Sequence record: PQ471516.1
Length of the DNA stretch: 64,000 nucleotides
From: Escherichia phage Turkey5
Strand: one strand, 5' to 3'
Shown: in pieces, positions 61,133 through 62,368 of the stretch
Layout of the letters: every line of letters starts with the position of its first letter
How positions within the stretch are numbered: position 1 is the stretch's first letter
Translations under genes and position numbers: made by a program
Notes under the pieces: generated by a model
What the model was told of the DNA's origin: nothing
The model's input: only the letters and a program-made list of their open reading frames with translations
The model's database searches: none

Positions 61133-61291
61133 ATGGATGTACTTTATGAAACAAAAATATGCACCTCCTTTAAACGAAAGTATTAGCTACATTCACTGGA
61201 ATGTAATCAAAAACCCTTCGTTATATAAACGATATTTCGTAGAACCAAATACTGGTTGGTTTTTAATGGAACTTATTTTTAGGGATTAATC

Positions 61292-61453
61292 ATGACACAT
61301 GAAATTTGGTTAAACTTAATGGCACACGATTTAAAACGAAGTATTAAACACTGGGATCTATATCTGATGATGACTATCAATTCACCTGTGTACTATAAAT
61401 CAGTACTAGATGCTTCGGCCCTTACTTTCATTGCAATTTCTATGAGTAGATAA
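61292..61453 (+). CDS. Mini-protein (53 aa) of the MTHxEW family; not in supplied track
   Basis: ATG 61292 with AGGGA upstream; N-terminus MTHEIW. Confidence 0.4.
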   Translation: MTHEIWLNLMAHDLKRSIKHWDLYLMMTINSPVYYKSVLDASALTFIAISMSR

Positions 61454-61454
61454 T

Positions 61455-61619
61455 ATGTCATACGATGAATGGTTTGGTATGTGTCTCAAGAGATATTACG
61501 GAGACATATACTATTTTGAGAATTTCATTTATAATTGTTTACGCAATAAAGATGAATACTATTCTAATATAGTTGTAAATGACGATTTCAGTACTTACAT
61601 AGGTATATGTTTATCATGA
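61455..61619 (+). CDS. Mini-protein (54 aa) of the MTHxEW family; not in supplied track
   Basis: ATG 61455 one nt after previous stop; N-terminus MSYDEW. Confidence 0.4.
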   Translation: MSYDEWFGMCLKRYYGDIYYFENFIYNCLRNKDEYYSNIVVNDDFSTYIGICLS

Positions 61620-61627
61620 GGTAACTA

Positions 61628-61813
61628 ATGACATATCTAGACTGGGTTGAACGCATGGATAGAATATTTGCCAATGACGTTTTTTATTTCAGAACAGGGG
61701 GTCTGGATAAAAGCATCAAAGACGATACTCTGTTTACCAGATGTATCATTGACTATCTGAATTGTTATGGTACAATGTATGGAATAGCCCGTACTACGGA
61801 TAAAGATGAATGA
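61628..61813 (+). CDS. Mini-protein (61 aa) of the MTHxEW family
   Basis: N-terminus MTYLDW; GAGGT upstream. Confidence 0.45.
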   Translation: MTYLDWVERMDRIFANDVFYFRTGGLDKSIKDDTLFTRCIIDYLNCYGTMYGIARTTDKDE

Positions 61814-61983
61814 CACATAACGAATGGTTGGTACAAACTGAACACTCGGTTATTCCAGGTATGAAATTTTGGAATGAACAGTTGATGCACTTCGTAAGTA
61901 ATAAAGTGTATTATGATGCATTCTTTGGAAAACATGCTACAATTGAGGTTCATGTGTATTATGCTATTGCATTTGGTGATTAA
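61810..61983 (+). CDS. Mini-protein (57 aa) of the MTHxEW family; not in supplied track
   Basis: ATGA-coupled; N-terminus MTHNEW. Confidence 0.4.
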   Translation: MTHNEWLVQTEHSVIPGMKFWNEQLMHFVSNKVYYDAFFGKHATIEVHVYYAIAFGD

Positions 61984-61986
61984 TTT

Positions 61987-62151
61987 ATGAAATATGACCA
62001 TTTAAAATACTATGCTGATAGAATAAATTATTATCCCTTTTATATAAGAAGCTTAGATGCATTAATATCAAAAAAAGTTGTATATAAACGATCTCAAGCT
62101 GATCTAACCAATATAGCATTCATTCTTGCAGTACTGTCTAAAATGGGATAA
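61987..62151 (+). CDS. Mini-protein (54 aa), divergent member (MKYDHL); not in supplied track
   Basis: ATG 61987 with GGTGA upstream. Confidence 0.35.
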   Translation: MKYDHLKYYADRINYYPFYIRSLDALISKKVVYKRSQADLTNIAFILAVLSKMG

Positions 62152-62176
62152 TGTTAAATTAGGATGAATACAAAAT

Positions 62177-62368
62177 ATGACACATGAACAATGGATGAAA
62201 CAATTCAGTGAGGATTATAAAGCTGCCATATCCTTTTATGGAAAAAGATTCAACTATCTTTTTTGTAGTGAATATCATTATAGAAGTATAGTTCTTTATG
62301 AACAAATGGACGGTGAAAAACCTGCTGCTCATTGGGTTGTAATGTACATACTTGCTATGTCAAAATAA
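62177..62368 (+). CDS. Mini-protein (63 aa) of the MTHxEW family
   Basis: N-terminus MTHEQW. Confidence 0.45.
   Translation: MTHEQWMKQFSEDYKAAISFYGKRFNYLFCSEYHYRSIVLYEQMDGEKPAAHWVVMYILAMSK

Follow-up and report, generated by a model that had tools for sequence, protein, structure and literature searches.

A tandem family of small, diverged genes beside the tRNA genes of Asteriusvirus jumbo coliphages

Layout and coding status of the array

The stretch of DNA analysed here (the window: 64,000 nucleotides (nt) of Escherichia phage Turkey5, sequence record PQ471516.1) has a G+C content of 36%, carries nearly all of its genes on the + strand, and includes a tandem array of seven mini-genes encoding proteins of 53-63 amino acids (aa) (w1 to w7, 61119-62368, +), with an eighth copy (w8) starting at 63893, beyond the transfer RNA (tRNA) genes that follow the array (Table 1). 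The region 60700-64000 is 98.4% identical over its full length to Escherichia phage vB_EcoM_JNE01 (JNE01), a 355-kb genome of the genus Asteriusvirus, which places the window in an Asteriusvirus jumbo coliphage; 121Q, PBECO4 and other members of the genus can be aligned to this region only in part. The JNE01 GenBank record annotates every copy except w6, always as a hypothetical protein, and shows further copies past the window end: w8 is an identical gene of 54 aa, followed by two further 54-aa copies with ATGA overlaps, so that the window lineage holds 10 copies when this continuation is counted.

The spacers from w1 to w7 measure 2, 1, 8, -4 (an ATGA stop-start overlap), 3 and 25 nt, and w1 overlaps the gene upstream by 14 nt. 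Ribosome-binding sites are visible in the array, among them AAGGA (w1) and GAGG (w4), and the tight coupling pointed out in a preliminary description of this DNA, made from the sequence alone, is evident. Since spacers of 1-8 nt and ATGA overlaps join the genes, translational coupling on a single polycistronic transcript is the probable mode of expression. The DNA pattern ATGWCNYAYNNNNNNTGG, equivalent to M-[ST]-[HY]-x-x-W, matched seven times in the 64 kb against 0.36 expected, a count reached in none of 100 shuffles; all seven matches are on the + strand, within 61119-63910, each at the first ATG of a family open reading frame (ORF). The coordinates that the preliminary description gave for w2 to w7, as well as the start of w8, were exact. 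It erred in one place: the extra ORF which it put at 61137-61289, lacking the motif and a good ribosome-binding site, is w1, whose real start lies at 61119 (MSHSEW), with AAGGA 5 nt upstream.

Sequence variation was analysed in the 1301-nt array against five close relatives, namely JNE01 and four metagenomic contigs to which the w7 ortholog had led. The array aligned without any indel in all five, and the 38 variant alleles in the ORFs were divided equally into 19 synonymous and 19 non-synonymous, compared to 18.5% synonymous expected (binomial p = 1e-5; ratio of non-synonymous to synonymous substitution rates, dN/dS, about 0.23). The same variants read in the two other frames gave 6:32 and 7:31, the neutral ratio. 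Among single genes, w4 had 6 synonymous and 4 non-synonymous variants, and w7 accounted for most of the non-synonymous changes (10, with 6 synonymous), clustered at residues 44-51 in an inserted loop. In 121Q, the w6 homolog (gp117) has lost one codon in frame. The w5 homolog of 121Q (L002) is split into gp115 (20 aa) and gp116 (32 aa), at 6016-6078 and 6088-6189; it is either a pseudogene, a copy in decay, or the result of a sequencing error in that record. The synonymous excess in the named frame only, the total lack of indels and the conservation across lineages (121Q, phAPEC6 and metagenomic relatives) identify the array ORFs, on sequence grounds, as real protein-coding genes. The preliminary description, which had suggested this codon-level comparison and regarded a lack of conservation in related genomes, together with no translation signal, as the mark of chance ORFs, was right to call them a mini-gene family: the ORFs are conserved in those genomes, with varying copy number.

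Table 1 Family genes, tRNA genes and FQxS paralogs in the window.
Feature	Position	Strand	Description
w1	61119-61289	+	56 aa, MSHSEW (ATG TCA CAC AGT GAA TGG); AAGGA Shine-Dalgarno sequence 5 nt upstream; most canonical member; coding sequence in JNE01
w2	61292-61453	+	53 aa, MTHEIW; annotated in JNE01
w3	61455-61619	+	54 aa, MSYDEW; orthologs 121Q gp114 and phAPEC6 gp101c
w4	61628-61813	+	61 aa, MTYLDW; GAGG ribosome-binding site
w5	61810-61983	+	57 aa, MTHNEW; ATGA overlap with w4
w6	61987-62151	+	54 aa, MKYDHL; divergent N-terminus, L instead of W6; unannotated in JNE01
w7	62177-62368	+	63 aa, MTHEQW; 8-residue insertion ahead of the last helix
w8	63893-64000	+	first 36 codons, MTHEEW, MTHEEWMNDINFRYSG; runs off the window end
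tRNA-Leu(taa)	62480-62564	+	directly 3' of the array
tRNA-Gly(tcc)	63530-63605	+	between the array and the second family-gene block
tRNA-Ser(tga)	63696-63785	+	between the array and the second family-gene block
FQxS paralogs (second family)	59783-60169, 60216-60722, 60704-61132, 62659-63048	+	128-168 aa; (E)EEFQxS-like motif near the C-terminal third

Family membership and predicted fold

The paralogs are mutually only 15-30% identical, and a profile of the copies outside the window, trimmed of the N-terminus, recognised w1 alone. A leave-out profile (non-orthologous members, first seven residues removed) scored w1 at 31.9 bits, w2 at 18.4 bits and w5 at 11.5 bits, values reached in 0 of 1000 shuffles each; w6 was marginal (43 of 1000), and w3, w4 and w7 received no support from it. 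This profile was weak because one subgroup dominated it, and it was replaced by pairwise z-scores and by group-versus-group comparison with hhalign. Beyond the motif, the pairwise z-scores were: 6.4 for w2-w5, 22 for w4-P0043, 5.0 for w4-P0041, 8.2 for w7-P0040, 5.9 for w3-P0041 and 5.4 for w2-P0040.

A first round of hhalign linked the main subgroups at 92-97% probability, in register over 35-48 columns, and three main groups were linked at 95.7-97.3% once the sequences of the metagenomic contig L009 were included; over both rounds the alignments of the subgroups spanned 35-53 columns. The w6 group depended on those sequences: its link was below 3% probability without the L009 intermediates, and with them it aligned in register over 49-52 columns to the w3/w4 group (71.5%, E-value 3.6e-5) and to the w2/w5/w7 group (80.7%, E-value 1.3e-5), the link to the w1/main group being weak (19.6%, E-value 0.0012). 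When the first 7 residues were left out, E-values were 4e-5 to 1.4e-3 for five of the six pairs of groups and 0.024 for the sixth, all in register. The L009 array holds relatives of w6, the closest being MNPRHYEYYVSRINGYPIYIR and the clear ones MNPRHYEYYVSRINGYPIYIRNLERLL, as well as N-termini intermediate between both types (MTKEEYESY, MTVEKY, MNIEQY). The idea that w6 is not a member was dropped once the intermediates raised its link to 71-81%. The preliminary description had called MKYDHL divergent, which holds for its N-terminus; the protein belongs to the family all the same, connected through the L009 intermediates.

The peptide alignment proposed in the preliminary description, made with 47 sequences, showed shared hydrophobic positions across the whole length: positions 1, 6, 7, 21, 28, 29, 35, 39, 48, 49 and 51-53 are 83-100% hydrophobic, spaced as in helix cores, in proteins of 50-64 aa, and the positions in between vary freely. 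Judged by these comparisons, all the copies, including the divergent w6, are one family, composed of subgroups joined by intermediates, which arose by repeated tandem duplication and deep divergence.

The fold was predicted with AlphaFold2 for w3, using a 40-sequence family alignment, and came out as four helices (residues 3-13, 15-30, 32-40 and 45-53) with a mean predicted local distance difference test score (pLDDT) of 96.6, every residue above 90, and a predicted template modelling score (pTM) of 0.75. A second prediction, made independently for w1 from fewer aligned sequences (22), also gave four helices, at a moderate pLDDT of 71.5. The structure prediction suggested in the preliminary description thus adds to the profile-profile tests in favour of its claim of a family. 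According to these models, the product of every gene is an independent protein, about 55 residues long, forming a compact four-helix domain; the predicted fold found no meaningful match among solved or viral structures and is apparently new.

The N-terminal pattern across members is M1-[T/S/N]2-x-x-[E/D/Q]5-[W/Y/F/L]6, and predicted helix 1 opens at residue 3. Helix starts carry two well-known signals, the capping box (Ser or Thr as N-cap, Glu at N3) and the hydrophobic staple (hydrophobic residues at N' and N4). In these proteins, Thr/Ser2 would be the N-cap and Glu/Asp5 the N3 residue of a capping box, Met1 and Trp6 would form the staple, and Trp6 would lie in the core; the conserved start M-T/S-x-x-E/D-W is thus best read as a structural signal and not as a targeting peptide. 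Single-base changes account for the substitutions seen at the start, which preserve the character of the residue (T/S, H/Y, E/D), and the DNA repeats between copies end after about 20 nt; selection therefore acts on the peptide, and a DNA-level signal was rejected as the cause of the conservation. The A at +4 (Thr, Lys or Asn codons) is also required by the ATGA stop-start overlap. A metal-binding N-terminus via His3 was considered and dropped, given that Y, F, K, R or L replace the His in many members.

Distribution, copy number and candidate functions

Sequence searches of Pfam, NCBIfam and the Protein Data Bank gave no match for the family. In PHROGs, w1 matched phrog_10970 at 3e-12 (residues 1-56 of 56) and w3 matched phrog_31562 at 1.7e-11; w3, w5 and w7 were weakly similar to phrog_10970 (E-values 0.07-0.19), and w2, w4 and w6 had no significant match there. 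Both clusters are the same proteins from sequenced Asteriusviruses and are of unknown function. PHROGs splits the family into separate unnamed clusters, assigns them neither a function nor a fold and does not describe them as a family; that they form one family, which fold is predicted for it and how its copy number changes is shown here. A word-indexed search of 5.8 billion proteins gave 23 matches, all unnamed or 'hypothetical', and a second one with a larger alignment gave 11 and added little. An exhaustive hidden Markov model search of 1.84 billion cluster representatives gave 28 matches, 3 of them spurious low-complexity repeat proteins and the others (about 25 clusters) all proteins of 43-64 aa matching from residue 1 or just after an over-called start. 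By tblastn, among 50,697 phage records, the family was found only in 34-35 Escherichia and Salmonella records, all belonging to one jumbo-phage group of roughly 310-390 kb with 121Q and PBECO4 (Asteriusvirus). A literature search found no paper on 'MTHEEW', and the jumbo-phage genome papers do not describe the family. As far as these searches extend, the family is confined to Asteriusvirus-type jumbo phages and one uncultured relative; it is previously undescribed, specific to this phage lineage and partly annotated as hypothetical proteins.

The copy number is 6 in phAPEC6 (gp101c-099c and gp096c-094c), 8 in 121Q (one split), 10 in the window lineage and 20 in L009. The gene w8 and the two that follow it are also present in 121Q (gp125-127) and phAPEC6 (gp096c-094c). 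L009 is the metagenomic contig bearing P0037, retrieved by the exhaustive profile search, and its flanks are about 72% identical to Asteriusviruses. It carries an unbroken run of 20 family genes (6001-9417) directly upstream of tRNA-Leu(taa) and tRNA-Gly(tcc), and the order of array then tRNA-Leu(taa) is common to the window and to L009 and its relative L010. Two of the L009 family genes (6675-6840 and 8926-9099, starting MTHDEW and MTREEW) had been missed by automatic gene calling. An HNH/NUMOD4 homing-endonuclease gene lies among the L009 tRNA genes (9935-10534), and in JNE01 an HNH homing-endonuclease gene is likewise placed among the tRNA genes. In every one of these lineages, the family genes come after a member of the FQxS family and stand beside or between tRNA genes; the interleaving with both, reported in the preliminary description, is plain from Table 1.

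We favour, at a probability of about one half, a reading of the family as diversified small protein-binding factors for host takeover or counter-defence, one which draws only on context and analogy. It is suggested by the conserved core, the variable surface and charge (isoelectric points of 4.2-9.7 across members), the deep divergence with frames kept, the changing copy number, and the position in an accessory region which also holds phage tRNA genes. The conserved core would be the shared scaffold, the freely varying surface and net charge would be the diversification, and each paralog would offer its own surface to a separate host target or variant of a target. Precedents exist in T4 for both aspects: a small counter-defence gene that is tandemly amplified (tifA, a ToxN inhibitor; PMC9391042), and three internal proteins, Ip1-3, each blocking a different GmrSD variant (PMC12373910).

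Several observations weigh against this reading. No homology ties any member to a host target in the Pfam, NCBIfam, PDB or PHROGs searches. Short-term evolution is purifying (dN/dS about 0.23) and not overtly diversifying, with the w7 loop cluster as the exception, and the split w5 homolog of 121Q may mean that individual copies are dispensable. The region has no excess of promoter-like sites (26 found, 29.4 expected). The capping-box interpretation derives from textbook helix rules and the helix start assigned by DSSP, not from the model coordinates.

A function linked to tRNA, as inhibitors of host tRNA-cutting nucleases (anticodon nucleases and similar) or as helpers of phage tRNA maturation, is the main rival reading, though a minority possibility. 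Family genes are found directly 5' of tRNA genes or between them in the window and JNE01, 121Q, phAPEC6, and L009 and L010, the shared array-then-tRNA-Leu(taa) order persists in the window and L009 despite very different arrays, and a common view of phage tRNA arrays is that they counteract tRNA-cleaving defences (PMC7824862). The linkage may however reflect a mere shared accessory region, in which the FQxS family and unrelated small genes are interleaved too; the broad span of isoelectric points shows no consistent RNA-binding character, and the searches made revealed no similarity to a known tRNA-processing or nuclease-inhibitor protein. A bolder extension, tentative and fairly improbable, would combine both ideas: a repertoire of up to 20 'mini-binders' per genome on a so far unseen 54-residue four-helix scaffold, each neutralising a different tRNA-attacking host nuclease, so that inhibitors and replacement tRNAs would make up one counter-defence island. 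Unlikely, in our judgement, is the view that the genes have no specific host target and form a near-neutral, duplication-prone, self-perpetuating cassette, or redundant structural or chaperone-like helpers, whose copy number drifts. The range from 6 to 20 copies, the apparently broken copy in 121Q and the weaker constraint between L009 and L010 (7 synonymous, 13 non-synonymous differences) would fit it; paralogs at 15-30% identity nevertheless have intact frames and have kept their length and core residues, the window lineage shows significant purifying selection, and neutral copies would be expected to decay under the phage packaging constraint.

Cargo resembling the T4 internal proteins, with the N-terminus as a capsid-targeting leader and the protein injected with the DNA to block restriction, is very unlikely. 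The T4 ip genes lie near a tRNA cluster, the T4 prohead protease cuts at (L/I)-x-E at the end of the leader, and phAPEC6 has an inner body. Like Ip1, Ip2 and Ip3 of the T-even phages, the family comprises several small proteins per phage that look non-essential, share a conserved extreme N-terminus and diverge otherwise; the Ips specifically inhibit different variants within a single defence family (PMC12373910, PMC3012670). The Ips are nevertheless unrelated to each other beyond the capsid-targeting leader, whereas the mini-proteins share a full-length hydrophobic core, homology and a predicted fold, their motif is predicted to lie inside helix 1, and the alignments have no conserved (L/I)-x-E protease site after it. 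In addition, the six phAPEC6 members (gp094c-096c, gp099c-101c) are absent from its 62 virion proteins detected by mass spectrometry, a method which can miss small proteins but which in the same virion proteome did detect one of 4.66 kDa (PMC7247149 Table 1). The view that these are no such genes at all, but chance ORFs, precursors of modified peptides or small membrane toxins, is practically excluded. These are short ORFs in an AT-rich genome (36% G+C), but the motif recurrence, the frame-specific synonymous excess and the cross-lineage conservation effectively refute chance ORFs. The tandem arrangement with a conserved N-terminus and a variable C-terminus resembles precursor peptides superficially; the domain is confidently predicted to fold (pLDDT 96.6) and not to be unstructured, and the neighbouring genes show no recognisable modifying enzyme or enzyme family match. 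For a membrane toxin or holin-like protein, the longest hydrophobic run (about 9-10 residues, in the C-terminal helix) falls short of the about 18-20 needed, and the grand average of hydropathy is mostly negative.

Tandem paralog families of small accessory genes are an already known kind of thing in large phages, and comparison with them shows where the present family differs. Like the T4 dmd-tifA segmental amplification and the poxvirus K3L 'accordion', it is a small viral gene multiplied head-to-tail whose copy number changes quickly (PMC9391042); those copies are recent, near-identical DNA repeats that act through gene dosage, whereas the mini-gene copies are old, 15-30% identical and repeat-like only in the first ~20 nt, which implies divergence of function rather than dosage. 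Bacillus phage G, with about 35 zinc-ribbon copies, is another case of one small domain expanded in one jumbo-phage lineage with a guessed function (PMC7824862); the mini-proteins, unlike the zinc-ribbons, are predicted to be all-helical, have no metal-binding ligands, and come from genes that stand strictly in tandem, with translational coupling, and keep to the tRNA region.

Most jumbo-phage genes lack a known function, and the very small ones are those most often missed or ignored. What is defined here is a predicted compact helical domain, present in 6-20 diverged copies per genome, under purifying selection and fixed beside a tRNA cluster. The window contributes a well-defined set of eight such genes, about 165 nt apiece. 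The annotation has gaps: w6 is absent from the closest GenBank record, two L009 copies were uncalled, and the PHROGs clusters look unrelated. If the members were specific inhibitors, they would constitute a new inhibitor scaffold and would show how large phages build counter-defence repertoires by duplication and divergence.

Neighbouring genes and transcription signals

Each FQxS copy matches a different PHROG of unknown function, and Pfam matches none. An FQxS copy stands immediately before and overlaps the first mini-gene in both the window and phAPEC6 (gp102c, then gp101c). Right after tRNA-Ser, the sequence at 63790-63868 (+) is tRNA-like, scoring 33.3 bits with the Rfam tRNA model (gathering score 29) without an ARAGORN call; 121Q has tRNA-Leu(taa) annotated in the same slot, for phAPEC6 the call there is tRNA-Arg(tct), and the window element may be a degenerate or unusual tRNA.

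The motif AGTACTGNYAAAA, with one mismatch allowed, has 19 sites in the window compared to 1.46 expected (for example 61081-61093, 62130-62142, 63047-63059 and 63676-63688, +), and four copies lie ~10-35 nt upstream of w1, w7, the gene at 63081 and tRNA-Ser. Examined as a promoter, this AGTACTG-containing motif showed no shared -35 element and no fixed distance; it may be part of a promoter, a binding site or a codon effect.

The array itself contains neither a strong promoter-like site nor a strong terminator-like one. Upstream of the small-gene region, two sigma-70 consensus promoters (58323-58351, 12/12, and 58419-58446, 11/12; +) lie about 100 nt apart, and strong terminator-like hairpins follow downstream of both (58747-58766 and 59743-59762, +), the second of them upstream of the array. 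In this part of the genome, such a succession of consensus promoters and strong hairpins points to early transcription units read by the host polymerase. Between w7 and tRNA-Leu there is an 11/12 sigma-70-like promoter (62394-62421, +; TAGACA-16-TATAAT with TG), followed by an 8-codon mini-ORF, MNDEFDGF (62444-62470, +), with a strong ribosome-binding site, GAAGGAG; the mini-ORF stops 10 nt short of tRNA-Leu and differs in JNE01 by one amino-acid change.

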